The translations under genes and the position numbers were made by a program. DNA of 64,000 nt from a bacterium (lineage in GTDB: Bacteria; Campylobacterota; Campylobacteria; Campylobacterales; Arcobacteraceae): NCBI GenBank assembly GCA_018816105.1, contig JAHIWE010000113.1, positions 13,340-77,339 of the forward strand. The letters run 5' to 3'. The first letter of the stretch is position 1, and each line of letters opens with the position of its first letter. Below, piece after piece: positions 1 to 60,290 of this stretch. Below the pieces are notes generated by a model. It searched no databases and was not told the origin of the DNA. It saw only the letters and a list, made by a program, of their open reading frames with translations.

Positions 1-645
1 AACCCTGACTTAAAACCAGAAAAAAGTAAAAGTTATGAATATAATATTGACTATTTATTAAGTAAAAATGATTTAATATCTTTTGCTATTTATTATTCAA
101 CTATTGAAGATTTGATTTTAATAGAAGAAAAAATGCCTCAACAAACAAATTTTCTTCCTAATACTACAATTATTGATCCAAGAGGCTCAAGAAATGCTGC
201 TAATTCATATATTTATGGAAGTGATATTTCGTATAGTGGCCACTCGTATTTTTCAGGATATGATTTAAATTATTGGTTTAATTATAGTTTTATAGATGGA
301 AAAATAGATTATGAATATGATTATGATTTACCTTTTTTAGCTCAAAATATTTTCAAAGCAGGAACAACTTTTAAACATAAAAACTTAACAATTTCACCAT
401 CAATAAAATGGATTAGTCCAATTACTGCTTCATATTATAAAGATGGTGAATTAGCAAAAGTTGATAGTTATATAACATCTAACATATATAGTAGTTATGC
501 AATTAATAAAAAACAAAAAATATCATTAAAAATTGATAATTTATTTGATAAACACTATTATAGCGTTAGGTATAATACTTCATCAAAGTATGTAAGCCCA
601 CAAAATACAAGAATGGTATTTTTATCATATACCATTAATTTTTAG
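1..645 (+). CDS. TonB-dependent outer-membrane receptor, C-terminal part (5' truncated by window)
   Basis: Frame is open from position 1 (NPDLKPEKSKSYEY..., a typical TBDR motif), has the 'IDNLFDKHY' TBDR C-terminal motif and ends in Phe (YTINF), as outer-membrane beta-barrels do. The track start at 112 is internal. Confidence 0.85.
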   Translation, partial: NPDLKPEKSKSYEYNIDYLLSKNDLISFAIYYSTIEDLILIEEKMPQQTNFLPNTTIIDPRGSRNAANSYIYGSDISYSGHSYFSGYDLNYWFNYSFIDGKIDYEYDYDLPFLAQNIFKAGTTFKHKNLTISPSIKWISPITASYYKDGELAKVDSYITSNIYSSYAINKKQKISLKIDNLFDKHYYSVRYNTSSKYVSPQNTRMVFLSYTINF

Positions 646-651
646 GAAAAA

Positions 652-2199
652 ATGAAAATATTTACTCATTTAATTATTATATTTTTTATTGTTACAACTC
701 TTTATTCAAATGAAACAAACGAAGATCAAGTAAAAGTTGCATATGTTTATAATTTTTTAAAAAATATATCATGGAAAAATGAAGATAAAATAAAAAAATA
801 TCGTTTACTAGTAGCCTCTGAAAACAAAACTTTAAAAAATATGTTCTTAATGCTTGGTTCAAGAAAGCAATTAAAAAATAAAAATTTAGAAATTTTAATT
901 TATGACGATAAAAAAACCTATGAAAATATTCAAGCTATTTATATTGATGACTCTTACGTAGAGATATATGAAAAACTATTTTTTGAATTTGAAAAAAAGA
1001 ATACCTTGTTTATTAGTAATGAATATAAAGATAAAAAACATGTTATGATTAATTTATTAAAAGATGAAACCCAAATTACTTTTGAAATAAATAAAGCAAA
1101 TATATTAAATCGTTCATTGGAAATTTCAGCAAATCTTATACTTTTAGGTGGAACACAAATTGATGTTGCAAAACTTTACAAAAGTTCGCAAGATGCATTA
1201 AAAATACAAAAAGAAACTATCAACTCTTTAAATCAAAGAATTAAAGATAAAAACTTAGAATTAATATCAAAAATAAATTCAATAGAAGAACAAAAATTAG
1301 TTATCACAGCTCAAACAAAAAATATTAAAAACTATGAAGAAAAATTGAATGCACAAACAAAACTTCTTCAAAAACAAACTATTCAACTAGAAGAAGAGAA
1401 AAGACAATTAAAAGAAATTTATAAAAATATAGAATCTCAAAAAGAGAAACTTTTAAATGCTGTTTTAAATGTAAAAGAAAAAGAAGGAGTTGTTACATCA
1501 CTTGTAAATTTACAAAAAGAGAAACAAGAAGAATTTGAAAAAGCAAAAAAAGATTTAGAGTTTTTAAATTCACAGATTCAAGAACAAAAAAATAACTTAT
1601 TAATTAAAGAAAATATTATTTCTGAACAAAAAAATGCAATGGCTGTTTTAGCAGTACTTTTTATTATTATTTTAATATTAGGGATAAATGGAATAAGACA
1701 AAATAAACTTTTAAAGAAATTATCTCAAATTGACTCGTTAAGTGGTTTATATAATCGTCGATTTATAAATCAAAAACTTGAAGAAGAAATTTTAAAATTT
1801 AAAAGATATAAAACTCTATTTTCTATACTCTTGATTGATGTTGATTATTTTAAAAAAATCAATGATAACTATGGACATGATAAAGGTGATTTTGTAATCA
1901 AAAAAATATCTTCATTAATTCAACAAAATACAAGAAATACAGATATAAATGCAAGATGGGGAGGAGAAGAGTTTTTAATTTTAGCTCCAAATAGTGATTC
2001 AATTGGTGCCTTAAAACTTGCAAACAATTTAAAAGAACTTATCGAAACTTATCAATTTGGTGTAGACTACAAAGTAACTATTAGTATTGGAGTTTCTACT
2101 TTTGATGAAAATTCAAATCTAGAAAAACTACTAAAACTTGCGGATGATGCTCTTTATAAAGCAAAAAAAAATGGTCGAAATAGAGTTGAGATGGCTTAA
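652..2199 (+). CDS. Diguanylate cyclase with N-terminal YfiR-like periplasmic domain, long coiled coil, TM helix and GGDEF domain
   Basis: N-terminal hydrophobic segment; 'EDQVKVAYVYNFLKNISW' resembles the YfiR/DUF4154 signature; Q/K/E-rich heptad region; TM AMAVLAVLFIIILILGI; 'DSLSGLYNRR', 'DVDYFKKINDNYGHDKGD', RNTD I-site, 'RWGGEEF'. Confidence 0.85.
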   Translation: MKIFTHLIIIFFIVTTLYSNETNEDQVKVAYVYNFLKNISWKNEDKIKKYRLLVASENKTLKNMFLMLGSRKQLKNKNLEILIYDDKKTYENIQAIYIDDSYVEIYEKLFFEFEKKNTLFISNEYKDKKHVMINLLKDETQITFEINKANILNRSLEISANLILLGGTQIDVAKLYKSSQDALKIQKETINSLNQRIKDKNLELISKINSIEEQKLVITAQTKNIKNYEEKLNAQTKLLQKQTIQLEEEKRQLKEIYKNIESQKEKLLNAVLNVKEKEGVVTSLVNLQKEKQEEFEKAKKDLEFLNSQIQEQKNNLLIKENIISEQKNAMAVLAVLFIIILILGINGIRQNKLLKKLSQIDSLSGLYNRRFINQKLEEEILKFKRYKTLFSILLIDVDYFKKINDNYGHDKGDFVIKKISSLIQQNTRNTDINARWGGEEFLILAPNSDSIGALKLANNLKELIETYQFGVDYKVTISIGVSTFDENSNLEKLLKLADDALYKAKKNGRNRVEMA

Positions 2200-3510: not shown

Positions 3511-3532
3511 TAAGGTGGATTTTTCCACCTTA
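3511..3532 (+). terminator. Hairpin after argG
   Basis: taaggtgga-tttt-tccacctta, a perfect 9-bp stem just after the argG stop, followed by a T-rich tract. Confidence 0.75.
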
Positions 3533-3654: not shown

Positions 3655-4746
3655 ATGTATTTAAACGATTTAGAAAAAATCATTAACATAAACTCATATA
3701 CAAAAAACAAAAAAGGTGTAGATGAAGTTGGTACTATAATGTCTAAATGGATAGAAGAGTTAGGCTTTAAGTTAAAAACTTATAATAAAGAACATATTGG
3801 TAATCATCTCTTATTCTCCTCCTCTAAAAAATCTGGAAAAAAAATCTTACTTTTAGGTCACAATGACACTGTTTTCCCACCAAATAGTTTTGAAGGATTT
3901 TCCCAAGATGAAAAATGGGTTTATGGACCTGGTGTTTGTGATATGAAAGGTGGGAATATTGTTGCACTTCAAGCTCTTAGAAACATTTTCAATCAAAATA
4001 GTGAAATATATAATATAGACTTTTTACTAGTTTCTGATGAAGAAACAGGAAGTGACGACTCAAAAGAGATAACAGCTTTACTTGCACCAAATTATGACTA
4101 CTGTTTTGTATTTGAAGCAGCAGGAATTAATATGGAAGTTGTAACCCAAAGAAAAGGGGTTGGAACTTTTATAATTACAATAGAAGGACTTGCAAGTCAC
4201 GCGGGAAATCATTATGATAAGGGAATTGATGCTAATTTAGAAGCTTCTTATAAACTTCAAGAGTTGGTAAAACTTACAAATCTAAAACTTCAAACAACTG
4301 TTAATGTTGGAAAAATAAATGGGGGAATTGGTGCAAATACAATCTCTCCAAAATGTGAACTACTTTTAGAAATCAGATATACCACTAATGATGAAAAAAT
4401 AAGAGTTCTAACTGCATTAAATAGAATTACAAATACTTCTTACATTACAGGAACTATTTCAACACTTAGTGGCTCAATCCAAAGAGATGTAATGCAAGAA
4501 AATTCAAAACAACTAATACTAATAAAAGAGTTAGAAACTATCACTAACTCTAAAATCTTAAGTGAAAAAAGAGGTGGAGTTAGTGATGCAAATATAGTTG
4601 CAAGTTGTGGAGTAACTACACTTGATGGTTTTGGGCCTTTTGGTGATGGAGATCATACAATAAAAGAGAGAGCCTTAAAAAGTAGTTTTAACTCAAGAAT
4701 AGAGTTAATGACAAAAATCTTAAATCATTTTCAAACAAATTTATAA
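3655..4746 (+). CDS. M20 family metallopeptidase (glutamate carboxypeptidase-like)
   Basis: 'GHNDTVF', 'GPGVCDMKGG', 'DEETGS', 'FEAAG', 'SHAG', 'GGVSDAN', 'DGFGPFGDGDHT'; no signal peptide. Confidence 0.9.
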   Translation: MYLNDLEKIININSYTKNKKGVDEVGTIMSKWIEELGFKLKTYNKEHIGNHLLFSSSKKSGKKILLLGHNDTVFPPNSFEGFSQDEKWVYGPGVCDMKGGNIVALQALRNIFNQNSEIYNIDFLLVSDEETGSDDSKEITALLAPNYDYCFVFEAAGINMEVVTQRKGVGTFIITIEGLASHAGNHYDKGIDANLEASYKLQELVKLTNLKLQTTVNVGKINGGIGANTISPKCELLLEIRYTTNDEKIRVLTALNRITNTSYITGTISTLSGSIQRDVMQENSKQLILIKELETITNSKILSEKRGGVSDANIVASCGVTTLDGFGPFGDGDHTIKERALKSSFNSRIELMTKILNHFQTNL

Positions 4747-4758
4747 AAAGGGGACAAA

Positions 4759-5688
4759 GTGGCAAAAAGAAATATTGGTATGTGGTTATATCAAAATAGT
4801 GGTGGAGAACAAATCCAAAAGAAAATGATTAAGTTGTTAAAAGATAGGGAAATTGATGTTCTTGCAAATGTAAATTTAAAAAATGCTATTGCAAAAAATG
4901 GTCATATTATTTATGAGATGAAAGACAAAAAAGTAAAACTTGATAAATTAGATTTATTCTTCTCTTATAATGCAGGGGAACAAACTCCGTATCAAGTCTA
5001 TTTATATAAAGCCTTAAATAGAATCATTCCAATGATAAACTCTTATGAAGCATTTGAATTAAGTGAAGATAAATTTCATACCTCATTTTATTTACGTAAA
5101 CATGGAATAAGAACAGCTGATTATAAACTTTGTCATAGTGATGACTCTCATAGATTAAATACTATTATGAAACAATGGGAGAAAATGGTTTACAAACCAA
5201 CTGATGGTTGGGGAGGAATGGGAGTTACAAAAATAGACAGTGTTGAAGCTTTAAATATGTTAATTCCTTTTTTAAGTCAAATAAATCTTAAATATTTTTA
5301 TGTGGAAAAATATGTAGATTATGATAACACAGATTATAGAGTAGACATTGTTGATGGACAATATGTTGCTTGTTATGGAAGAAAAGCAGCAACAGGACAT
5401 TGGAAAACAAATGTTACAAGTGGTGGAAGTGTATTTTTAAGAGAAGCAAATGATGAGATAGTTAATCTTGCAATTAAAGCTAGTAAAACTTTAGGATTAG
5501 ATATTGCTGGTGTTGATATTATTTTTGATAGAAAAAAAGAAGAATATATAGTTTTAGAAGTAAATGGAATTCCTGCTTTTGCAACTCCAGATCAAGAAAA
5601 AATGGGCTTAAATTTTAACGATAAGAAAATAGATTTAATCGTTGATTTAATAGATAGAAAAACTATTAAAAAGGAAAATGAAAAATGA
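4759..5688 (+). CDS. RimK/LysX-like ATP-grasp amide ligase
   Basis: GTG start with GGGGA SD; 'EDKFHTSFYL', 'VYKPTDGWGGMGV', 'DYRVDIVDG', 'WKTNVTSGG', 'GVDII', 'LEVNGIPAF'. Confidence 0.88.
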   Translation: MAKRNIGMWLYQNSGGEQIQKKMIKLLKDREIDVLANVNLKNAIAKNGHIIYEMKDKKVKLDKLDLFFSYNAGEQTPYQVYLYKALNRIIPMINSYEAFELSEDKFHTSFYLRKHGIRTADYKLCHSDDSHRLNTIMKQWEKMVYKPTDGWGGMGVTKIDSVEALNMLIPFLSQINLKYFYVEKYVDYDNTDYRVDIVDGQYVACYGRKAATGHWKTNVTSGGSVFLREANDEIVNLAIKASKTLGLDIAGVDIIFDRKKEEYIVLEVNGIPAFATPDQEKMGLNFNDKKIDLIVDLIDRKTIKKENEK

Positions 5689-7181
5689 AAAAATTACCAA
5701 AAATAGGATTCTTATATTTAGATTTTGTATTACAATTCTTTAATAAATCAAACTTCAAAGCTTGGCCTGACAAAATAGAGTCTGTTACATATCATTGGAA
5801 AAATGATAAAGATAGATTCATAAAAGAGGTAAAAAGAAAAAAAATTGAAATTCTAGTTGGAAATATTCCAGCAACTGCCTATGAAACCTTTGTTGAAATA
5901 TCAAAAGAGTTGCCAAATGTAAGATTTGTTCCATCTATTGAAACACAATTTTCAAATAAATCAAAGGAAAATGTAACGCTTTTTTGTAAAAAATTTGATT
6001 TAGCAATTCCAAAAACAAAAATTTTTTATGATAAAGAAAAAGGTTATAAATATTTAAAAGAAAAAGCCTCTTATCCTCAAATCATCAAAAGATCTTATGG
6101 ACCATCAAATTATGGTGGATATTTTGTACATAAAGCTAATAATTTCAAAGAAGCAAAAAAACTTCTTGATGAGAAAAAATATAATCCAATTTATACTCAA
6201 AATGCTATTGATTTAAAAGATTCTGGGGATATTAGAGTAATGTTAATTGGTCATAAACCAATTTGTGCATTTTGGAGATATTCAGGTAAAAACCAATGGA
6301 TTACAAACACTTCACAAGGAGGTTCAATGTCATATGAAAATGTTCCTATGAATGCGTTAGAACTTGCCGTTAAAGCCTCAAAAGCTGCAAAAGCTGAATA
6401 TTGGGCTTGTGATATTGCAATTTGTGCAAAAACTGGAAAAGCTTATATTTTAGAGTGTGCGACTGCCTTTGCTGCATTTCCATATATACGAGATTGGATT
6501 TGTCAATATTTAATGTGGGATTTTTCAAAAGGAAGATTTAGCAAACCTCATATTCCCCTATTCTCTTGGGAAGAGTTAGGAAAAATTGATTCAAATTTAT
6601 TAAGAACTTTAAGACATATTGGCTTTAGTAAATACACAGCTAGTTATGATGGAGAATATTTTATCAATGATAAAAAAGATACCTATGAAATGGAACTAGC
6701 ACTTTTATCAGATGAATCTGATGTTCCTCAAAAACCAGAAGATTGTATCCAATTAGAGGCTAACAAAAATTATACAAAAGAGAAAATATTTGAAATAAAC
6801 AAGATAAATTTAAATACTGCAACACTAACTGATTTAATGTCACTTTATGCAATGGAAGAGGATTTAGCTTTACAAATACAAGAGTATCTTCAAGACAATA
6901 TCATTACAGATAGTTCTGATTTATTAGAACTTGAAGCAATAGATGAACAAATGCTTAAATCTTGGGATAGAAATATTGATGATATGAGAGTAGATATAAA
7001 TAGAATTGATAAAGATAATTTGAGAAAAATAAAAGGTATTGGTAAAAAATTAGCAAAAATAATCTCTGAACACAGAGATGCCAATGGATATTTTAAAAAT
7101 CTAGATGAATTAAAAGATATTGAAGGAATTGGCAAAAATAAATTTGCCCAATTAAAATCCCGATTAAAAATAGGAGAATAA
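5685..7181 (+). CDS. ATP-grasp domain protein fused to two C-terminal ComEA-type helix-hairpin-helix repeats
   Basis: ATGA overlap with the upstream gene; 'IIKRSYGPSNYGG', 'DIRVMLIG', 'WITNTSQGG', 'ACDIA', 'ILECA'; C-terminal 'INLNTAT...' and 'VDINRIDKDNLRKIKGIGKKLAKII...LKDIEGIGKNKF'. Confidence 0.85.
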   Translation: MKKLPKIGFLYLDFVLQFFNKSNFKAWPDKIESVTYHWKNDKDRFIKEVKRKKIEILVGNIPATAYETFVEISKELPNVRFVPSIETQFSNKSKENVTLFCKKFDLAIPKTKIFYDKEKGYKYLKEKASYPQIIKRSYGPSNYGGYFVHKANNFKEAKKLLDEKKYNPIYTQNAIDLKDSGDIRVMLIGHKPICAFWRYSGKNQWITNTSQGGSMSYENVPMNALELAVKASKAAKAEYWACDIAICAKTGKAYILECATAFAAFPYIRDWICQYLMWDFSKGRFSKPHIPLFSWEELGKIDSNLLRTLRHIGFSKYTASYDGEYFINDKKDTYEMELALLSDESDVPQKPEDCIQLEANKNYTKEKIFEINKINLNTATLTDLMSLYAMEEDLALQIQEYLQDNIITDSSDLLELEAIDEQMLKSWDRNIDDMRVDINRIDKDNLRKIKGIGKKLAKIISEHRDANGYFKNLDELKDIEGIGKNKFAQLKSRLKIGE

Positions 7182-7185
7182 GTTC

Positions 7186-9771
7186 TTGAAAAGGTTATAT
7201 AGGTCATATAGTGAATCAACAAACATTTTTAAAGAATTGGAAGCTAAATATCCTAATTATTTCAAAATTGAATCAATAGGTAATACTTGGGAAAATAGAG
7301 AGATAAATTTAATTACAATTTCAAAAGATATTAAAACAGCCGATTCAAGACCAGCTCTATTTTATACAGGAACTATTCATGCAAGAGAGTGGATTGGTCA
7401 TGAATTAGCTATAGAGTTTGCAATATATGTACTAAAAAATCTTGAAACTGACCCTACTTTACAAACTTACTTAAATGAAAGTACAGTTTATATGGTTCCT
7501 TGTGCCAATCCTGATGGTTATGAGTATTCAAGAAAACACTTCTCTTTTTGGAGAAAGAATAGAAGACAAAATGCTGATGGAACTTATGGAGTTGATTTAA
7601 ATAGAAACTTTCCTATAGGTTTTGTAAAATCAACTGCTACTACTTCAAATGTTTATGGAGGACCTGAACCATTTTCTGAACCTGAAACACAAGCTCTTAG
7701 GGATTTTGTTTTAAGTCATTCTAATATTACAATAGCTTTAGATTATCATAGTCAAGGAAATGTATTTTTTCCTGCCCACGATTTTAGACATGAAGATACT
7801 ATTGATACAACTGATATGAACACTTTATGTGCAAATATGACTGAAGAGATTAGAAAAATATCAGGTCGAGAGTATGGAATACATCAAGGTAAACCACCAG
7901 CAAAATTAATAGGAGGAAGTGGAAGAGAATTTTATTATTCAAATAAAATTATCTCATCTGTTGTAGAAGTTGGAACTAGAAATATAAGTGATTATATGGA
8001 AGATATGAACGAAAATATTAGAGAACATATTCCAGCACTTATTTATGCCCTTAAAGAAGCTGATAATTACGCTAAAGACAATATTATGAAAAGGGTTAAC
8101 TCTTTTAATGTTACAGAAATTGGCTCAAACCACGTAAATCTAAAATGGGATTATGAATTAAACGAAAATACATATTTTGAAATTTTTAGAAGTACAAAAG
8201 ATAAACAATTTTGCAATAGTTCAAATTTAATCTCAAAAACTCAAAGTTTAGAGTTTAATGATATTAATCTAGGTTCAAATAAAGATTATTACTACAATAT
8301 AAGAGCTGTAAATAAAAAAACAAACCAAAAATCACCCTTTTATCCACAAATAAAAATACGTACATTAATAGAATATGATGAATATAGTAGAACCTACTAT
8401 GCAAATGCAAAAGGTACTGGATATGTGGCAGAAAATCTAAATAATAATCCTAGTCATTTTGGAGTGAACTCATTGTTTGTAGGAGTTGATGAAAATAAGG
8501 GAATTTCATATGCAGTTATTTCTATTAATGTAAAATCACTTCCATCAAATGCTTTAATAAAATTAGCTTCAATTAATCTATACCCAATAAATAGAGTTTC
8601 AACAACTATTGAAAAATATGGTGAGTGGAATATAGGACTTGTAAATCAAGAAACTATGGGAGATATTACAAACTTTGATGATGTAGCTAATATGCAAATA
8701 ATAAGATATGTTGGACGTCCTACAGAATCACACCAATTAACCCAAGGAATTTGGAGGACTTGGAGTCTGTCTGGTTTGGAATGTAATGATTTAAAAAAAT
8801 CAATTAAAAATGAAGCTATTGTTTTAAGAGTTGAAGGTCCAAAAGAGCTAAGAATTGGAAGAACAAAACAGATGATGCAATGGGATATTGGTTATGGCTC
8901 ATTTGGTTTTGGATTGGCTTATAGACCAAGATTAGAACTAACCTATACAATTGAACCAACCACAACTGCTCTTTATGCTAAATCAATTAAAACAGTTAGT
9001 AAAGCTGAGCTTATAGATGATGTGATTACAGCTGGTTTTGATGTAAAGGGAAATAAGATATATTCAACTTTTCAATTTAATTTATCTTCTCTTCCTCCAT
9101 ACAATGACACCATGATTACTAAAGCCTATTTTGAATTAAACTCTACAAAGATTTATATAAAAGATGATATTAGGTTTCATTTAGAATTTGTGGATGAAAA
9201 TATTGATAAAAACTATGAAGATATTACAAATAGAGAAATAATTCAAAATATCGGTTATGATGTAAGTGCAACAGAATTAAAAAATAATCAAACCCAATAT
9301 TTTATGTTTGATTCTTTTTCTGAAATAATTTTAAATGAAAAACTAAAAAGCAAATCTGATATTTCATTTGTGTTAGAACCCACTTCTGCATTAAAAATTA
9401 TAAAAAATAAAACTGTTTCATGGGAAGTATCAAATAAATCTTTATGTCCAAAACTTATTCTTGAACATATACCAAAAAGAAGATTTCCTATTGAAAAAAT
9501 TACAAATGCAAAATTATCCTTAGAAAATGGGAAAATAAAAATCTCTTGGACAAATCCTAAAAATCCAGATTTTGTAGGAGTAAAAGTAATAAAAAATCCA
9601 TTTAGAAAACCTATTTCAGCACAAGATGGACAAAAACTTTATGCAGGAGTTGATGAGTATACTTTAGATGATTTTGGAGCAAGTGATATAAATAAATACT
9701 ATGCAATATTTACCTACGATGATGTTCCAAATTATTCAAAACCTATAATTTTAGAGTATATTGCTAAATAG
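7186..9771 (+). CDS. M14 zinc carboxypeptidase with FN3-like and beta-sandwich accessory domains
   Basis: TTG start with AGGAG SD; 'HAREW', 'NPDG', 'WRKNR', 'GVDLNRNF', 'DYHSQG', 'VEVG'; FN3-like 'VNLKWDY...YYYNIRAVN'; two 'S(L)P...I..A...' segments resembling DNRLRE/CBM96-type domains; no signal peptide. Confidence 0.85.
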   Translation: MKRLYRSYSESTNIFKELEAKYPNYFKIESIGNTWENREINLITISKDIKTADSRPALFYTGTIHAREWIGHELAIEFAIYVLKNLETDPTLQTYLNESTVYMVPCANPDGYEYSRKHFSFWRKNRRQNADGTYGVDLNRNFPIGFVKSTATTSNVYGGPEPFSEPETQALRDFVLSHSNITIALDYHSQGNVFFPAHDFRHEDTIDTTDMNTLCANMTEEIRKISGREYGIHQGKPPAKLIGGSGREFYYSNKIISSVVEVGTRNISDYMEDMNENIREHIPALIYALKEADNYAKDNIMKRVNSFNVTEIGSNHVNLKWDYELNENTYFEIFRSTKDKQFCNSSNLISKTQSLEFNDINLGSNKDYYYNIRAVNKKTNQKSPFYPQIKIRTLIEYDEYSRTYYANAKGTGYVAENLNNNPSHFGVNSLFVGVDENKGISYAVISINVKSLPSNALIKLASINLYPINRVSTTIEKYGEWNIGLVNQETMGDITNFDDVANMQIIRYVGRPTESHQLTQGIWRTWSLSGLECNDLKKSIKNEAIVLRVEGPKELRIGRTKQMMQWDIGYGSFGFGLAYRPRLELTYTIEPTTTALYAKSIKTVSKAELIDDVITAGFDVKGNKIYSTFQFNLSSLPPYNDTMITKAYFELNSTKIYIKDDIRFHLEFVDENIDKNYEDITNREIIQNIGYDVSATELKNNQTQYFMFDSFSEIILNEKLKSKSDISFVLEPTSALKIIKNKTVSWEVSNKSLCPKLILEHIPKRRFPIEKITNAKLSLENGKIKISWTNPKNPDFVGVKVIKNPFRKPISAQDGQKLYAGVDEYTLDDFGASDINKYYAIFTYDDVPNYSKPIILEYIAK

Positions 9772-10342: not shown

Positions 10343-10356
10343 GAAATATTGTAAAT

Positions 10357-10378
10357 AATAGGTTTAAAAAAACCTATT
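10357..10378. terminator. Bidirectional hairpin between convergent genes
   Basis: aataggttt-aaaa-aaacctatt. Confidence 0.6.
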
Positions 10379-11303
10379 ATTTACATTTACTATATGCTTC
10401 TTGAAGTTTTGAGTATAAGTCATCAAAACCTACATCATCCATTTTTTCAAGTAAATCAACCATTACTACATTGTCTTCATTACCATTCCAAACTTTGATG
10501 TAAGAACCTTCTTTATATCCATTATCTTGTCTAAATTGATTTAAACAGTTTTTACCAATATAAAGTTTTTGTAACCACATAAAAGATAATCCAGAGATTT
10601 TACAACATCTAAAGAATTGATCAATAAATCTTTCAATTCCACTAAATGAAGGCATATTCCCAGTATCAATTGCAAGTGAAATATATGATAGTTTTTCAGC
10701 TTCTTTTACCATTAATTTAACATCTACTTCTTGAAATACTTCATAAATACAGTGTGTATTTACAAGTGAAACTGCTTTTGGTACATTTGTTTCTTGTAAA
10801 ATATAAGACATTAAAAAATGCCAAATATCAACAAGCTCAACGTGGATATTATTCATATCAGGATCTGAGTTAATATTTTTCCAATGTTTCCATGGAGTTG
10901 ATTCAATTAACTCAGCAACTTCCATATGAATACATCTTAACCAGTTTATCTCTTTTCCAAATTTGTTTGAACCTAGTTCCCAATTTTTACCATTTGTAGA
11001 GTCATTTAATTTCTTTTGTAATAAAAACATCTCTTCTAGCTTGTGGGGAAATGATGATACCTCTTCAAGAAGTGAAGCTAAAGGTAAACACTCTTCAATA
11101 ACATTATCTAAAGATGAATTCATAGGTAATAACTCTTTTTCACCTTTTAATAAATGTAAAAGTAATGATACCATATAAGGAACATCATTTTTCTCTTCCC
11201 AATTTAAAACATCATTAGATGTAACACCTGCATAATGCATAAAATCTTCAATACTTAAAAAACCTAGTGATTTAATACTCTCTTTAAAATCTTTATATAA
11301 CAA
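10377..11303 (-). CDS. dut: Dimeric (all-alpha) dUTPase with ~85-aa N-terminal HTH-like extension
   Basis: 'LQKKLNDSTNG', 'MEVAELIESTPWKHWK', 'VELVDIWHF', 'YIGKNCLNQFRQDNGYKEG', 'EDN' are Campylobacter-type dUTPase motifs. Confidence 0.88.
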   Translation of the reverse strand: MLYKDFKESIKSLGFLSIEDFMHYAGVTSNDVLNWEEKNDVPYMVSLLLHLLKGEKELLPMNSSLDNVIEECLPLASLLEEVSSFPHKLEEMFLLQKKLNDSTNGKNWELGSNKFGKEINWLRCIHMEVAELIESTPWKHWKNINSDPDMNNIHVELVDIWHFLMSYILQETNVPKAVSLVNTHCIYEVFQEVDVKLMVKEAEKLSYISLAIDTGNMPSFSGIERFIDQFFRCCKISGLSFMWLQKLYIGKNCLNQFRQDNGYKEGSYIKVWNGNEDNVVMVDLLEKMDDVGFDDLYSKLQEAYSKCK

Positions 11304-11305
11304 AT

Positions 11306-12793
11306 TTAACTCCTATTTAATGGTAATTGAATAACGAACTTTGTACCAGTATTGGTATTATATACATCAATTTTTCCCAAACTATGTTGTTCTATAATTG
11401 TCTTACTCATATATAATCCCAAACCTGTTCCATTTTTGTTTGTTTTTGTTGAGAAATATGGATCAAAAATCTTTTCAATAACCTTATCCTTTATTCCACC
11501 TGCATTATCTTCAAATTCAACAAATAATCTATCATTTTTTTCATATGAAAAAATATTTATTTGTCTATCTTGTGTATTTCTTTCTATCATAGCATCACAA
11601 GAATTTTTTGCTAGATTAATAAAAACTTGAACTATCTCGTTTAAGTAAATCTCTATTTGTGAAGTAGAATCATTTTTGTATTTTACACTTATAGAATTTA
11701 GTTTAAATAAATATGATAAGAAATCTATAGATTTATCTATAACATTTTTAATATAGACCTCTTCTTTTTTCTTATTTGGTTTAAAATAATCTCTAAAATC
11801 ATCAATTGTCTTTGACATATAATCCAATTGTTTTCTAACTTCAAAAACTACATCATCAAGCATTTCATCTGAAACTTCACCTTTTATCATTTTTAATAAA
11901 GGTAATTTTTGAATTAGTATTGACACAGCTTGTAATGGTTGTCTCCATTGATGAGCTATCATTGAAATCATTTCACCTAAAGCTGCTGATTTTGACTGTT
12001 CAACTAGTAAATTTTGTTGACTTACTAACTCTTTTTGTGAAGTAATATCTTCTCTAATAGCATCATATCCAGTGATATTTCCAGCATTATCAAAAGTTGG
12101 ATGGATTGTAGTTTTAACCCAGTAAAACTCATTATTTTTTTTAAGATTTTTAATTTCACCTTGCCACATATTTCCTGATTTTATAGTTTTCCATAAATTC
12201 TCAAATAACTCTTTTGGCATATCTTTATGTCTAATTATATTATGAGATTTTCCGATTAATTCATATGCTTCATAGCCTGAAATTTTACAAAAAGCACTTG
12301 ATACACTAGTAATAATTCCTTTTATATCAGTTCTTGACATAATTACATATTTATCAACAATATCAATAGATTTATTTAAAGCATTTTCAACTTGAACTAT
12401 AGACTTTGCATAAATATCTAAAACACTTGAAAAAATCTTTTCAAAATAGAAATTAATTTTTTCAAATAACTCAAGACTTTGAAGCTCAGTTTTAAAAGCA
12501 AAATCAATTAATGATTCTTTAAAAGCAGAAAAAAGTGTAAAAAGCTCATTTACACGTAAGTTTTGTTTTTTTAAATATTTTAAAAAATCGATAATTACGG
12601 GACAATTTTGAGTTTTTTCATCAACTCTTATAAGTAAGATATAATGTTCAAGAAAACCAAAAGAGTATCTTTTGACAAGCAAATCTTCATTTATTGAGTA
12701 ATTACGTATTATTTTTATAACTCTAGGAGAACTAATCCAAGTTCTAATAATAGCTATTTTATTTTTTTCAATCTTCTCAATAAATTTATCCAA
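11306..12793 (-). CDS. Cytoplasmic sensor histidine kinase (helical N-domain + PAS/PAC + HisKA + HATPase)
   Basis: Aer/NifL-like PAS 'FCKISGYEAYELIGKSHNIIRHKDMP', H-box 'IAHQWRQPL', 'DNAGG', 'GTGLGLY'; no TM segment. Confidence 0.92.
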   Translation of the reverse strand: MDKFIEKIEKNKIAIIRTWISSPRVIKIIRNYSINEDLLVKRYSFGFLEHYILLIRVDEKTQNCPVIIDFLKYLKKQNLRVNELFTLFSAFKESLIDFAFKTELQSLELFEKINFYFEKIFSSVLDIYAKSIVQVENALNKSIDIVDKYVIMSRTDIKGIITSVSSAFCKISGYEAYELIGKSHNIIRHKDMPKELFENLWKTIKSGNMWQGEIKNLKKNNEFYWVKTTIHPTFDNAGNITGYDAIREDITSQKELVSQQNLLVEQSKSAALGEMISMIAHQWRQPLQAVSILIQKLPLLKMIKGEVSDEMLDDVVFEVRKQLDYMSKTIDDFRDYFKPNKKKEEVYIKNVIDKSIDFLSYLFKLNSISVKYKNDSTSQIEIYLNEIVQVFINLAKNSCDAMIERNTQDRQINIFSYEKNDRLFVEFEDNAGGIKDKVIEKIFDPYFSTKTNKNGTGLGLYMSKTIIEQHSLGKIDVYNTNTGTKFVIQLPLNRS

Positions 12794-12998: not shown

Positions 12999-13571
12999 TT
13001 ATATTTCAACTTTACTTTGTATAGCTTTTGAAAGAGATAAAATATCTACATTTTCTAAACTAACACCTGTTGGAACACCTTGTGCTATTTTTGTAAATCT
13101 AATTTGGTGATTTTTTAGTTTATCTTCAATAAATAAAATAAATGCGTCATTAGCAATAGAAGGAGTAATTGCAAATAAAACATTGCTTACTTCATTGTCT
13201 ACTACAAATTTATTTAAAGCATCAATAACTTCTTGATCTAACTCTTCAATAACAAAATATTTCCCATCAAATTGATTTGAATCTTCTATTACAAAAATAT
13301 CTTTTGCACTTTGAACAATACAAAGCTTTGTATTATCCCTTGATTCATCCAAACAAAATTCGCAAATCTCATGCTCACTCATAGAGCCACATCTTGAACA
13401 TTTTGTGATATTTTTTAGGGCATTTTCAATACTATGAGCTATTTTGATTCCGCAATAATTGTCGTTCATAACAATATGATAAGCTAGACGAAGAGCAGAT
13501 TTTTTTCCAATAGTAGGCAACGATTCAAACGCTTCAACAAGTTCGTAAAATTTTTCTAATCCTTTATTCAT
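12999..13571 (-). CDS. recR: Recombination protein RecR
   Basis: 'LPTIGKKSALRLAYH', Cys4 zinc finger 'CSRC...CEFC', Toprim-like C-domain, 'IAQGVPTG'. Start moved to the second Met (13571). Confidence 0.95.
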   Translation of the reverse strand: MNKGLEKFYELVEAFESLPTIGKKSALRLAYHIVMNDNYCGIKIAHSIENALKNITKCSRCGSMSEHEICEFCLDESRDNTKLCIVQSAKDIFVIEDSNQFDGKYFVIEELDQEVIDALNKFVVDNEVSNVLFAITPSIANDAFILFIEDKLKNHQIRFTKIAQGVPTGVSLENVDILSLSKAIQSKVEI

Positions 13572-13829
13572 GTTGGGATTATATCTAAGATTTATCAATT
13601 TTTGCATAAATCTTTTTAAAAGTCTATTAGATAGTTTATTTCAGATTATTATTAATAATATGACAATTTTTCGCGTCAAAACATTAAATTAACTATCAAA
13701 TAAAAGATATAAAAATATTAGTAAAAATTATTAAGTGAATTTAAAAAGAGTTGAATGAGTACAATATCTATAAATATTCACATTTTTATGTACTAAAAAG
13801 TGTTTATATTTAGACTAAATTACTTCAAA

Positions 13830-13917: not shown

Positions 13918-16287
13918 ATGTTTTTGCAGATAATAGAACAATTAAAAATAATGGTCCCATATTTGCCACAAATTATGCAACAAGCTAAATTTGGAATTAC
14001 AATAACAGACCCAAATAAAAAAGACAATCCTTTGGTCTATGTTAATAAATATTTTTGCGAAATGTTTGGTTATGAATATGAAGAAGTTATTGGAATAAAT
14101 TGCAGATTCCTTCACGGTAGTGATAAAAATCAAGATTCTATAAAAGATATTAAAAATGCAATAGATAAAAGAATACCTATTACTAGAATTTTAAGAAATT
14201 ATAAGAAAGATGGTACCTTAATTTATGCAGAACTTAATATTACACCTATAATGGAGAATAATAAATTAAAATTCTTTTTAGGTATTCAAAAAGATTTATC
14301 TTTTGAAAAAAATTTATCAGAAAAGATTAGAAATGCACAAGAGTTATCTAATATTGGATATTGGGAATTAGATTTAATAAAAAATAACCTTTATTGGTCA
14401 GATCAAATATTTGATATTTTTGAAATTAATAAAAATCAATTTGCAGCTTCATATGATTCTTTTTTAGAACTAATACATCCAGATGATAGAGATTTAGTAA
14501 ATGATGCTTATTTAAACTCTTTAAAGACTAAAGAAAAATATTCAATACAACATCGTTTATTAATGGCAGAGGGTAGAATAAAATATGTAGAGGAAAGATG
14601 TGTTACTCATTTTGATAAAGATGAAATAGCAATTAAATCTATTGGAACAGTTCAAGATATTACAAAAATAAAAGAAATTGAGATAGAACTTAAAAAAGCA
14701 TTATCTTTAATGGACTCATACAAATTGGCTATGGATAAATCAAGTATAGTGTCTAAATCTGATTTGAAAGGCATAATAACTTATGTAAATGACAATTTCT
14801 GTGCTATATCAAAATATACAGAAGATGAACTCATTGGAAAACCTCATAGCATAATTAGACATCCAGATAATAAAAAAGAGATCTATGAAGATCTATGGGA
14901 AACTATACAGTCAAAAAAAATATGGAAAAAAATATTAAGAAATATTAATAAATATGGAGAAGAGTATTGGGTTAATACAACTATTTTACCAATTACTGAT
15001 CAAAATGATACTATCATTGAGTATATAGCAATTAGACATGATATTACAAATACTATTGAACAAAAAAACAGATTAGATAATATTGCTAATATAGACTCTC
15101 TAACAGGATTATACAATAGGAACAAGTTATACGATGATATAAATAAAAGTATTGCTCCTGCATTAGCTATAGTTAATATTGACAGATTCTCTGAAATTAA
15201 TGATTTTTATGGACATTCTTTAGGAGATCATTTTATTAAAGAATTTTCTCAGCAATTATCTAATTGTAAAAATTGCAATCATTTAAATATATATCGTCTT
15301 CAAGGTGATGAATTTGTAATATTTAATGATAATGCAAATAGAGATAAATTTCTAGATAAAATTTATGAAATAGATAAAAAACTTAGAAAAGAAAAAATAG
15401 AAATAGATAATGATTATATTTATTTAGATTTTTCAATTGCAATTTCATATGAGTCCAAGGAAGTATTATTAAGAACTGCAGATATGGCTCTAAAAGCAGT
15501 GAAAAAAGATAATAAAAATATTTTAGTTTATAATGATAATATATCTAGAAGTGATGAATATAAAAACAATATTAAATGGTCAAATATTGTAAGAGAAGCT
15601 TTAAGAGAGGATAGAATAGTTTCTTTGTATCAACCTATTATAAATAATAACACAATGAAGTATGAAAAATATGAATCATTAGTAAGAATTAAAGAAAATG
15701 GTAAATATATATCTCCATTTTATTTTTTAAGTATTGCAAAAAAAACAAGACACTATGTTGAAATCACTAAAACAATGATTGAAAAAAGCTTTAAATTATT
15801 TGAAAATAAAAAAGAAGAATTTTCAATAAATTTAACAATTGAAGATATCTTGAATGAAGATACAAAAGAATTCATAATTAACATGCTTAATAAATATAAA
15901 ATAGGAGATAGAGTTGTATTTGAAATTGTTGAGTCTGAATCTATAGAAAACTTTGAAAATATATCTAAATTTATAGTTTTAGTAAAAGCACTAGGTTGCA
16001 AAATTGCAATAGATGATTTTGGAACAGGATACAGTAATTTTGAATATCTTGTAAAATTAAAAGCTGATTATATAAAAATAGATGGTTCTTTAATCAAAGA
16101 TATAGATAAAAATCATATTAGTGAAATTGTTTGTAAGAATATTGTAAATTTTGCAAAAGATCTAAATATGAAAACTATTGCGGAATTTGTAGAAAATGAA
16201 TCAATTTTCAATAAAGTAAAAGAGTTAGGAATAGACTATTCTCAAGGTTATTATTTTGATAAGCCATTAGAAATAAGTAAAGAATAA
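13918..16287 (+). CDS. LOV-PAS-PAS-GGDEF-EAL protein (probable c-di-GMP phosphodiesterase)
   Basis: LOV-type PAS 'ITDPNKKDNPLVYVN...GINCRFLHG...NYKKDG...FLGIQKD'; two further PAS domains; degenerate 'QGDEF'; EAL 'YESLVR', 'EIVES', 'IDDFGTGYS', 'IKIDG', 'SQGYYF'. Confidence 0.9.
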   Translation: MFLQIIEQLKIMVPYLPQIMQQAKFGITITDPNKKDNPLVYVNKYFCEMFGYEYEEVIGINCRFLHGSDKNQDSIKDIKNAIDKRIPITRILRNYKKDGTLIYAELNITPIMENNKLKFFLGIQKDLSFEKNLSEKIRNAQELSNIGYWELDLIKNNLYWSDQIFDIFEINKNQFAASYDSFLELIHPDDRDLVNDAYLNSLKTKEKYSIQHRLLMAEGRIKYVEERCVTHFDKDEIAIKSIGTVQDITKIKEIEIELKKALSLMDSYKLAMDKSSIVSKSDLKGIITYVNDNFCAISKYTEDELIGKPHSIIRHPDNKKEIYEDLWETIQSKKIWKKILRNINKYGEEYWVNTTILPITDQNDTIIEYIAIRHDITNTIEQKNRLDNIANIDSLTGLYNRNKLYDDINKSIAPALAIVNIDRFSEINDFYGHSLGDHFIKEFSQQLSNCKNCNHLNIYRLQGDEFVIFNDNANRDKFLDKIYEIDKKLRKEKIEIDNDYIYLDFSIAISYESKEVLLRTADMALKAVKKDNKNILVYNDNISRSDEYKNNIKWSNIVREALREDRIVSLYQPIINNNTMKYEKYESLVRIKENGKYISPFYFLSIAKKTRHYVEITKTMIEKSFKLFENKKEEFSINLTIEDILNEDTKEFIINMLNKYKIGDRVVFEIVESESIENFENISKFIVLVKALGCKIAIDDFGTGYSNFEYLVKLKADYIKIDGSLIKDIDKNHISEIVCKNIVNFAKDLNMKTIAEFVENESIFNKVKELGIDYSQGYYFDKPLEISKE

Positions 16288-59933: not shown

Positions 59934-59966
59934 GAGTTAAATTGTATAATTTTGTGAGTATTTTAG

Positions 59967-60290
59967 TTAGGTAAACCAATAAGCCGCGTTTTGTTTTTAA
60001 GACAATAATTTATCTAGCTACTAAATTACTTTAGTAGTCTTGCGAAGACCAATTTCGTGAAGTAAATACCTAGTCTTCTTGCTGCAGGTTGGGTTTACAA
60101 AGCACTTAAGATTACTCAAAAGTCTGGTAGGCTCTTACCCCACCGTTTCACCATCACCGAAAAATCGGCTGTCTATTCTCTGTTGCACTATCCCTTAGGT
60201 TACCCCAGCCATCATTTAGATGGAACCTTACTTCACAGCAGCCCGGACTTTCCTCTTGATTTTACTCAAGCTATTGTCTGGTTTACCTAA
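59967..60290 (-). ncRNA. rnpB: RNase P RNA
   Basis: Minus strand has GAGGAAAGUCCGGGC near the 5' end and ACAAAACGCGGCUUAU near the 3' end; the termini pair (ttaggtaaacca / tggtttacctaa) as P1. Confidence 0.96.

Follow-up and report, generated by a model that had tools for sequence, protein, structure and literature searches.

Why does a RimK-type ATP-grasp protein carry two helix-hairpin-helix (HhH) domains at its C-terminus, one of them acidic and the other basic? The question is raised by an open reading frame (ORF) in a 64,000-nucleotide stretch of Arcobacteraceae DNA (contig JAHIWE010000113.1, hereafter the window), which encodes a protein of 498 amino acids (5685-7181, forward strand) called grasp2 throughout this work. 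The ligase encoded upstream (4759-5688) is called grasp1, and the two C-terminal HhH domains of grasp2 are called rep1 and rep2. Together with two carboxypeptidase genes, grasp1 and grasp2 form a conserved and uncharacterised four-gene cassette, which is a RimK-family system distinguished by an unusual catalytic motif, by HhH domains on a tether and by two carboxypeptidases of its own. The answer that we tentatively favour, at somewhat less than even probability, is that the module is a cytoplasmic system that would add amino acids at a C-terminus and trim them off again, with grasp2 as an atypical second ligase-type subunit.

Domain layout of grasp2 and its altered magnesium motif

The ORF is an intact frame whose ATG overlaps the stop codon of the grasp1 gene as ATGA in the window. 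Pfam matches were obtained with the RimK ATP-grasp family (residues 104-256, E 3.2e-13) and with HHH_3 (E 2.5e-25, in two stretches, the best at residues 435-494), and the NCBIfam model of the comEA HhH region (TIGR01259) matched residues 431-495 with 65.8 bits, against a cut-off of 152.35. These matches, together with the charge counts given below, bear out what the original prediction had read from the letters of the window, an ATP-grasp enzyme fused to two ComEA-type HhH repeats, one acidic and one basic; the peptides that it quoted are present at their coordinates in both repeats (rep1, nucleotides 6804-6983; rep2, nucleotides 6990-7178). The repeats had been described as coming after the ATP-grasp body. 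They are indeed C-terminal, but they do not follow it directly, as a segment (residues 295-325) and a linker (residues 326-373) lie in between. The layout of the protein is as follows:

5685-7181, forward strand: grasp2 as a whole, an atypical ATP-grasp protein with a C-terminal tether and two HhH domains
5685-6566, forward strand: ATP-grasp body (residues 1-294), net charge +20, with a RimK/LysX/ArgX-like fold according to Foldseek and phmmer
6447-6470, forward strand: 'ILECATAF' (residues 255-262), the position of the E-x-N motif, here E257-C258-A259, from the alignment with grasp1
6567-6803, forward strand: tether (residues 295-373), consisting of the conserved segment 'WEELGK..LLRTLRHIGFSKY' (residues 295-325) and a variable acidic linker (residues 326-373)
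6804-6983, forward strand: rep1, a degenerate acidic (HhH)2 / HHH_3 domain (residues 374-433)
6990-7178, forward strand: rep2, a canonical Lys-rich ComEA-type (HhH)2 / HHH_3 domain (residues 436-498)

The closest solved structures to the body found with Foldseek were LysX/ArgX (5k2m and 3vpb) and RimK (5zk6), with E-values of about 1e-10 and template modelling scores to the target of 0.6-0.7, and phmmer matched grasp2 to LysX 1uc9 (E 6e-8). The scores against the NCBIfam models lie under the cut-offs (TIGR00768, 67 bits against 143.4; LysX, TIGR02144, 65 against 275.6) and the RimK equivalog model gave 17 bits. By its sequence, grasp2 is thus placed in the ATP-grasp superfamily, within the RimK family, with an incomplete magnesium motif.

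A closer inspection of an alignment of 45 diverse relatives showed that the body is very strongly conserved. Hardly any variation is seen across the family in the nucleotide-binding Lys with the Gly-rich loop (IIK135RSYGPSNYGGY) or in the substrate loop of the RimK type, 'N-x-x-x-G-G' (WITN208TSQGG), and both align with grasp1, RimK and LysX; Asp182/Arg184, Arg198 and the metal ligands Asp243 and Glu257 are strongly conserved. The complete magnesium triad (Asp, Glu-x-Asn) is not found, since Asp243 and Glu257 are kept and the Asn is absent. In RimK, Ddl, glutathione synthetase, biotin carboxylase and TTL this Asn of the E-x-N motif coordinates magnesium. The position of this third ligand is occupied by Ala259 in grasp2 ('VLEVNG' at the aligned position of grasp1), and the change is a property of the family: Ala is found in 339 of 340 family proteins, Ser in the remaining one and Asn in none, the triplet ECA being invariant in the alignment of diverse relatives. 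An invariantly absent Asn in the midst of near-perfectly kept catalytic loops points either to an altered or weakened chemistry or to ligand binding without catalysis. On these sequence grounds we take grasp2 to be a ligase that is specialised or weakened and that would contribute mainly by targeting.

Catalysis by grasp2 is favoured by the near-perfect conservation of the flexible catalytic loops. The opposite, that grasp2 is a pseudo-enzyme, dead through the loss of the Asn and acting as a regulatory or targeting partner that would bring grasp1 and the peptidases to a site, is possible but doubtful. It would agree with the Asn never being present and with a fully canonical grasp1 that is always adjacent. 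Against it, the Lys, the Gly-rich loop, WITNTSQGG, Asp243 and Glu257 are near-invariant over three phyla, which is unusual for a dead enzyme, and grasp2 is the most conserved protein of the cassette.

The full-length model of grasp2 was of moderate confidence (predicted local distance difference test score, pLDDT, 69.6; predicted template modelling score, pTM, 0.53), with the tether (residues 295-370) below a pLDDT of 50. Within the tether, residues 295-323 are conserved even in the forms from Thiothrix, and the charge of the acidic linker varies from -1 to -18 across orthologues; the low confidence of the model in this region suggests that the linker is probably disordered. The hydrophobic N-terminus of the protein does not vary within the family, and in the model it forms the first β-strand of the fold; no N-terminal signal peptide is evident in the sequence, in agreement with the original prediction.

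The four-gene cassette and its distribution

Relatives of grasp2 were searched in a collection in which each of 185,579 bacterial and archaeal species is represented by a single genome; 296 stretches encoding them were found, and the locus comparisons covered 80 related loci. The tblastn searches with the window proteins revealed a constant gene order in the 80 loci, with M20 peptidase, grasp1, grasp2 and M14 peptidase genes closely spaced on one strand. Unsupervised clustering of ORFs of at least 80 residues gave only these four genes as common to the loci (77, 73, 72 and 68 of 80), and the shortfalls that were checked corresponded to contig ends, except for one locus (L076) that lies outside a cassette. 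Other neighbours are lineage-specific, and argG upstream and a gamma-carbonic-anhydrase-like gene downstream accompany the cassette only in the Arcobacteraceae. The same four genes in the same order were also seen in Candidatus Thiothrix sulfatifontis (CP094685) and in unrelated JGI and Logan metagenome contigs. The cassette is a compact four-gene module that has spread horizontally, and the earlier description of grasp2 as a ligase subunit agrees with its place as a subunit-like member of a conserved gene set. Besides grasp2 (gene 3), the cassette in the window comprises:

3655-4746, forward strand: gene 1, M20 metallopeptidase, carboxypeptidase-G2-like, with no signal peptide (Pfam Peptidase_M20 and M20_dimer)
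4759-5688, forward strand: gene 2, grasp1, canonical RimK-family ligase with an intact E-V-N (Pfam RimK, 2.6e-20)
7186-9771, forward strand: gene 4, M14A-like zinc carboxypeptidase of 861 amino acids (Pfam Peptidase_M14 at residues 14-264, 3.9e-59)

Among solved structures the M20 protein is closest to carboxypeptidase G2 (1cg2, E 1e-22), and its gene lies directly upstream of the ligases in 73 of the 80 loci. Grasp1 aligns to Escherichia coli RimK (5zct) through 'vmEvN', which reads 'LEVN' in grasp1; its NCBIfam scores are 138.9 bits for rimK_fam (cut-off 143.4), 145 bits for MptN and 63 bits, against 331, for the RimK equivalog. The M14 gene is found directly downstream in 68 of the 80 loci. 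Its product has about 590 additional β-rich residues at the C-terminus (fn3-like and DNRLRE-like), has neither signal peptide nor pro-domain, and is closest among solved structures to carboxypeptidase A4 (1e-29) and carboxypeptidase T (6e-27). The strings HAREW, WRKNRR, NRNF, DYHSQ and VVEVG are present in it, at what we take to be the places of the M14A zinc and catalytic motifs. No N-terminal signal sequence is evident in any of the four cassette proteins, which indicates a cytoplasmic location. An anti-phage defence system was also considered for the cassette and was rejected, as none of the four proteins had a PADLOC match.

A protein search among 5.8 billion proteins gave 1,287 matches, and the best 120 of them were all full-length, 70-100% identical and of the same Pfam architecture, with hosts in Aliarcobacter, Arcobacter, Malaciobacter, Poseidonibacter, Halarcobacter and Sulfurospirillum. 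To these the best 80 genome stretches added Hydrogenimonas, Nitratifractor, Sulfurimonas, Desulfuromusa, Geobacteraceae and metagenome-assembled genomes of Helicobacteraceae. Among 1.84 billion representatives of clusters at 50% identity only 24 matches below 1e-30 were obtained, about five of the clusters being full length, so that grasp2, as judged from these searches, is a tight and distinct family rather than a generic RimK. The fusion of body and HhH domains, found in Campylobacterota, Desulfuromonadales and Thiothrix, is accordingly genuine and ancient, recurring in more than 300 related proteins from three phyla; a strain-specific read-through of a separate comEA gene, which the original prediction had named as an outcome that would refute it, does not account for it. 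The names given to grasp2 relatives in databases are vague or contradict one another ('helix-hairpin-helix domain-containing protein', 'RimK domain protein ATP-grasp', 'alpha-L-glutamate ligase', 'competence ComEA-like helix-hairpin-helix protein' in JGI, 'glutathione synthase/RimK-type' and 'hypothetical'), and a full-text search of the literature found no study of this cassette or architecture, an earlier computational mention remaining possible.

The architectures were classified in 330 fetched proteins with a near-complete body by means of competing rep1 and rep2 profiles, with counts that are biased by the choice of queries:

Body with rep1 and rep2: 179 of 330 (Arcobacteraceae, Sulfurospirillum, Hydrogenimonas, Nitratifractor and Desulfuromusa)
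Body with rep1 only: 128 of 330 (Sulfurimonas and Helicobacteraceae type, about 441 residues)
Body with rep2 only: 16 of 330 (Thiothrix type, with long low-complexity linkers, 515-650 residues)
Body only: 7 of 330 (partly fragments)

Despite this bias, all three HhH-bearing architectures are recurrent, and they amount to ready-made domain-deletion experiments in nature (rep1 with rep2, rep1 only, rep2 only). Among the genome loci, rep2 is absent in 22 of the 78 whose C-terminal regions could be scored. Six-frame profile searches of the 8 kb fetched to either side of these short forms detected no separate rep2, nor was one seen in the intergenic gaps of these loci.

The HhH tandem also occurs on its own. 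In Arcobacter sp. 31_11_sub10_T18 (L036:12232-13598) the cassette is followed, after the M14 gene, by an extra grasp1 paralogue with the LEVN motif, and directly after this paralogue by a stand-alone protein of 145 residues that is rep1-like and rep2-like. A metagenome scan with an alignment of such stand-alone proteins revealed six more loci (L084-L089) with the order M14, grasp1 paralogue and HhH tandem. As the stand-alone tandem adjoins a grasp1 paralogue in seven loci, the HhH unit is functionally tied to RimK-type ligases, with which it travels in cis or in trans. It follows as well that this unit can work with grasp1-type enzymes alone, without a grasp2 body, a point in favour of the pseudo-enzyme alternative set out above.

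A different arrangement is present at the locus outside any cassette (L076:7992-9452), which encodes a grasp2 paralogue that keeps the canonical HhH and has a Lys/Ser-rich low-complexity stretch (KKSKKSKADKKSSKKEDKSKKKKSKKEKK) in place of rep1, a charge solution opposite to that of the window protein. As regards the hosts, all the named ones that carry the cassette are bacteria of the sulfur cycle from sulfidic, marine or groundwater habitats, a pattern that could be due to a common gene pool or to a link in function. The window itself is AT-rich (G+C 22-30%), is matched by Aliarcobacter metagenome-assembled genomes with 96% identity at the protein level, and its DNA was recovered nearly complete in one groundwater metagenome run.

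The acidic and the basic HhH domain

Rep1 contains 2 Lys/Arg against 15 Asp/Glu (net charge -13, isoelectric point 4.05), and rep2 16 Lys/Arg against 10 Asp/Glu (net charge +6, isoelectric point 9.8). Degenerate as it is, rep1 is a genuine if diverged member of HHH_3, and the resemblance is not fortuitous: taken alone it matches HHH_3 with 27.7 bits (E 2.9e-6), 19 of 25 orthologous segments match this family as well, hhalign relates the rep1 and rep2 profiles with a probability of 94.7% (E 6e-8), and AlphaFold gives rep1 the same four-helix pattern as rep2 with a pLDDT above 90. Both of the G-I-G hairpins are replaced in rep1, by YAMEED (residues 388-393) and EAIDEQ (residues 417-422), while the hairpins of rep2 (KGIGKK and EGIGKN) have in both cases G-I-G followed by Lys. 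The A-M-E-E-D stretch of rep1 aligns on G-I-G-K-K of rep2, with E20, E21 and D22 of the rep1 alignment (residues 391-393 of the protein) opposite Gly, Lys and Lys of 'GIGKK'; E21 (residue 392) is conserved in at least 90% of the sequences. In ComEA the hairpin lysines presumably contact DNA. With the hairpin Gly and Lys exchanged for acidic residues, rep1 is charge-reversed on the face that canonically binds DNA. The rep1 motif TLT-LM-L-GMEE--A ... W is kept in long and short forms.

Across orthologues the charge of rep1 has a mean of -11 (range -18 to +6) and that of rep2 a mean of +4.7 (range -4 to +11), the Desulfuromusa forms of rep2 being neutral or acidic. The two charges do not compensate each other (Spearman rho +0.26), and no correlation across orthologues supports a compensation between body and rep1. 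The summed charge of linker and rep1 is -19.5 in the long forms and -17.7 in the short ones, and the trade-off between the two (rho -0.62) is mostly a contrast between two clades.

The rep2 profile, compared with the sequences of the PDB, matched EEPD1 (6e-27), ComEA (8dfk, 8e-18) and Tex (7e-10). The best match of the rep1 profile was the second, partly degenerate HhH domain of EEPD1 (4.8e-8), and a weak one was obtained with residues 441-470 of NusA (6j9e, E 0.021). EEPD1 (PDB 9yi2) is therefore, as far as sequence comparison goes, the best solved match to both domains; it likewise has two tandem HHH_3 domains with the second partly degenerate, but fused to an endonuclease/exonuclease/phosphatase domain instead of an ATP-grasp one. 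Residues 365-498 modelled alone (with 38 sequences) gave a pLDDT of 92 and a pTM of 0.80, and the two domains are thus predicted to form one rigid unit with a defined arrangement, which bears on the packing of the two repeats that the original prediction had proposed to model. Single-domain counterparts were found with Foldseek in ComEA 8dss (root mean square deviation, rmsd, 1.5 Å over 64 columns), 2duy, KIF22, TEFM and PsbU, and at low probability (0.25-0.47) in the NusA AR structures 1wcn and 1u9l. No Foldseek counterpart of the whole tandem was seen in the PDB, the alignments over both domains having an rmsd above 10 Å.

Since rep2 keeps the G-I-G hairpins and Lys residues of ComEA, Tex and EEPD1, a nucleic-acid tether is a reasonable reading of it, and it probably binds double-stranded nucleic acid without sequence preference. 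The nucleoid tether of the original prediction is accordingly plausible for rep2 from its hairpin sequences, but it is not essential to the core function, as 128 of the 330 proteins have rep1 and lack rep2. Rep1, being charge-reversed, is predicted not to bind DNA; by analogy with the acidic dual-HhH of NusA it probably binds a basic protein surface. The AR1 and AR2 domains of NusA form an acidic dual-HhH tandem at the C-terminus of that protein and bind proteins and not nucleic acid, and AR2 autoinhibits RNA binding (PMC6614801 and its reference 38). Rep1 shares with them an acidic dual-HhH fold (as predicted, net -13) without nucleic-acid-binding hairpins; however, the similarity is marginal, rep1 is clearly closer to HHH_3 of the ComEA/EEPD1 type, and only one of the two repeats of grasp2 is acidic.

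The NusA precedent bears on a further proposal, developed from the original prediction, in which the acidic rep1 would act as a DNA mimic that masks rep2 until a signal arrives, making grasp2 a switchable nucleoid-tethered ligase. The rigid two-domain unit predicted for rep1 and rep2 would suit such a mask, and the acidic residues of rep1 stand exactly where rep2 has its DNA-contacting Gly and Lys. Nonetheless rep1 occurs without rep2 in the 128 short forms, with no separate rep2 gene near them, and rep2 without rep1 in 16 of 330, which indicates that masking is not the main role of rep1 just as tethering is not essential to the core. The missing charge compensation and the neutral to acidic rep2 of Desulfuromusa speak against the proposal as well, and a rigid constitutive packing alone fits poorly with a releasable mask. 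As the main role of rep1, DNA mimicry or autoinhibition is therefore improbable; a softer form of autoinhibition is kept, in view of the predicted rigid unit and of the NusA precedent.

Several database names suggest instead a competence or DNA-uptake protein of the ComEA family, among them the JGI name quoted above, and the TIGR01259 match at residues 431-495 could be taken in the same sense. Rep2 is indeed a canonical ComEA-type (HhH)2 domain with G-I-G hairpins (8dfk, 8dss). Nevertheless the match is far under its cut-off and is limited to the HhH domain; grasp2 is an enzyme-fused protein of 498 residues with no signal peptide or membrane anchor, its rep1 lacks the GIG hairpins, and its gene lies among ligases and peptidases and not beside comEC or comF. 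A competence identity is highly improbable and is effectively refuted by domain architecture and gene context. The missing export signal is no anomaly, as HHH_3 is not specific to exported proteins and the relatives of the domain include Tex and EEPD1, neither of which is known to be exported.

A candidate add-and-trim system and its surroundings

In the reading that we tentatively favour, the module would extend the carboxyl end of an acceptor by amino acids in an ATP-dependent manner, glutamate being the most likely one, and the M20 and M14 carboxypeptidases would trim them off again. Grasp1, with every canonical catalytic residue, would be the obvious catalyst, possibly as a heteromer with grasp2, in which the ATP-grasp fold is retained along with the nucleotide-binding Lys and the Gly-rich loop, and in which only one of the three metal ligands is lost. 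The flexible acidic tether of about 80 residues would carry rep1 as a protein-binding acidic HhH domain and, in grasp2 of the Arcobacter type, also rep2 as a nucleic-acid-binding one. Glutamate is suggested by homology, because grasp1 resembles RimK and MptN, which are alpha-L-glutamate ligases; carboxypeptidase G2, for its part, is a glutamate-releasing enzyme. The add-and-trim reading is further supported by the fold of grasp2, closest to LysX/ArgX and RimK, which modify protein C-termini. Self-modification of grasp2 at its own C-terminal '...KIGE' was considered apart from this and rejected, as this C-terminus is not conserved outside Arcobacter and Sulfurospirillum.

Wastewater metatranscriptome contigs (90-99% identical) cover the whole cassette and span both the grasp1/grasp2 junction (5427-5692) and the grasp2/M14 junction (7165-7355). 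This is weak evidence, in agreement with a probable expression of the cassette and compatible with co-transcription. A further feature bears on the upstream limit of the operon:

3511-3532, no strand: palindromic hairpin between argG and the cassette, found in a scan for terminator-like structures

The hairpin is likely, though again on weak evidence, to be the end of the argG transcript and the upstream limit of the cassette operon. Over the cassette the contig depth is about 3-8 times below that of argG, and it dips immediately before the M20 gene. A promoter scan of the window gave no more matches than shuffled sequence.

Several points weigh against the add-and-trim reading. The contig depth just given is a poor measure of expression, with carry-over of DNA possible, and the overlap of the grasp1 and grasp2 genes is not conserved in other loci. 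Glutamate specificity derives from family resemblance only, grasp1 falling below the NCBIfam trusted cut-offs for every named equivalog, and the missing Asn could mean that grasp2 is non-catalytic. In the full-length model the HhH unit is not docked with confidence on the ATP-grasp body, and neither in grasp2 nor in the stand-alone HhH proteins is the C-terminus conserved, so that it offers no clue to a modification site. No acceptor or substrate gene is conserved in or near the cassette among the ORFs of at least 80 residues in the 80 loci, and a small-molecule product fits the same enzymes equally well.

The last two points lead to a small-molecule or polymer pathway, in which the ligases would build a glutamyl-containing di- or oligopeptide, the tail of a cofactor, or a poly-amino acid that serves for storage or osmoprotection, the carboxypeptidases would degrade or recycle the product, and the HhH domains would only scaffold or localise the enzymes. 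MptN and CofF, which belong to the RimK family, glutamylate small molecules, and MptN is the best NCBIfam match of grasp1; small glutamyl conjugates are substrates of carboxypeptidase G2, to which the M20 protein is closest among solved structures, and the hosts are bacteria of marine or sulfidic habitats, where compatible solutes are common. On the other hand, a tethered DNA-type domain next to an acidic HhH of the protein-binding type is hard to rationalise for the synthesis of a soluble metabolite, the ATP-grasp enzymes nearest in structure, LysX/ArgX and RimK, modify proteins, and the large β-rich domains of the 861-residue M14 protein would be expected for the recognition of a macromolecule. 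We consider such a pathway rather unlikely.

The add-and-trim reading can be compared with three known systems. Few bacterial enzymes are known that attach a peptide tail to proteins or cofactors; the RimK-family ligases belong to them, and very few of these systems have been characterised. In RimK and the RimABK system of Pseudomonas, a ligase of the same fold that adds C-terminal glutamates is also paired with a remover, and grasp1 keeps the RimK motifs; the cassette differs in having two ligase paralogues instead of the one homotetramer of RimK, a grasp2 without the Asn of E-x-N and with an HhH tether, and M20 and M14 metallopeptidases as trimmers. No link of the cassette to rpsF was seen.

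The LysX/ArgX-LysW-LysK system provides the closest solved folds to the grasp2 body (5k2m, 3vpb and 3vpd, solved with the LysW carrier) and likewise pairs a RimK-family ligase with an M20 hydrolase. In the LysW system an acidic protein domain docks on a basic ligase surface. The acidic domain of the cassette has, in contrast, an HhH fold, is fused to the ligase and lacks a conserved C-terminal glutamate. Among the ORFs of at least 80 residues in the 80 loci, no LysW-like gene and no other lysine or arginine pathway gene is part of the conserved cassette; LysW has some 55-60 residues, and the gaps of the cassette in the window are too short for another gene, an ORF of LysW size outside these gaps being missed at the 80-residue floor. 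A lysine or arginine carrier-protein pathway, for which argG, the LysX-like fold and the M20 protein had made a candidate, was rejected, since argG is adjacent only in the Arcobacteraceae and neither LysW nor pathway genes are conserved among the ORFs of this size.

In the cycles of tubulin tyrosine ligase-like polyglutamylases and cytosolic carboxypeptidases (TTLL/CCP) of eukaryotes, an ATP-grasp ligase and an M14 carboxypeptidase reversibly tail a macromolecule with glutamate, at the C-terminus or on side chains. The logic of ligase and M14 carboxypeptidase would be shared by the cassette as an analogy; the ATP-grasp family is a different one, and the M14 protein of the cassette is closest to the A/T type (M14A) and not to the cytosolic CCP type. 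Taken further, the cassette would be a bacterial counterpart of the TTLL/CCP 'tubulin code' on the nucleoid, in which a DNA-tethered complex of two ligases would add glutamate tails, the acidic HhH would recruit a basic DNA-, RNA- or ribosome-associated protein, and the M14 and M20 enzymes would erase the tails. This extension has a low probability; if true, sulfur-cycle bacteria would have in it a charge switch that acts reversibly on chromatin-like proteins or on those of translation.

The module thus unites two different ligases, two erasing carboxypeptidases and a tethered binding module of the nucleic-acid type. The identity of the acceptor would bring to light either a reversible protein modification or a glutamyl metabolite, new in both cases, and would explain the near-perfect conservation of an ATP-grasp body in which a canonical metal ligand is absent. 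The interest would be high if the acceptor proved to be a nucleoid or ribosomal protein.

Other features of the window were seen around the cassette:

112-645, forward strand: C-terminal β-barrel part of a TonB-dependent receptor, whose gene probably starts upstream of the window
652-2199, forward strand: one protein in which a GGDEF diguanylate cyclase domain is combined with a transmembrane segment, a long coiled coil and an N-terminal YfiR/HmsC-like periplasmic domain (DUF4154)
10350-10385: perfect hairpin with a 16-bp stem between the convergent gamma-carbonic-anhydrase-like and dUTPase genes, likely a bidirectional terminator
10377-11303, reverse strand: dUTPase of the dimeric type (dUTPase_2 at residues 88-263), with an N-terminal extension of about 85 residues that has no Pfam match
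11306-12793, reverse strand: PAS-histidine kinase
12999-13607, reverse strand: recR
13918-16287, forward strand: triple-PAS GGDEF-EAL protein
59964-60289, reverse strand: bacterial RNase P RNA class A (250.8 bits)

The RNase P RNA is the sole Rfam match of the window, in which no tRNA genes are present anywhere in the 64 kb. The kinase and the triple-PAS protein flank recR, and together with the protein at 652-2199 they bring to three the signalling proteins within 16 kb, of which two have cyclic-di-GMP domains. At 652-2199 the YfiR-like domain and GGDEF are found in one protein; in Pseudomonas the cyclase YfiN is repressed by YfiR as a protein of its own.

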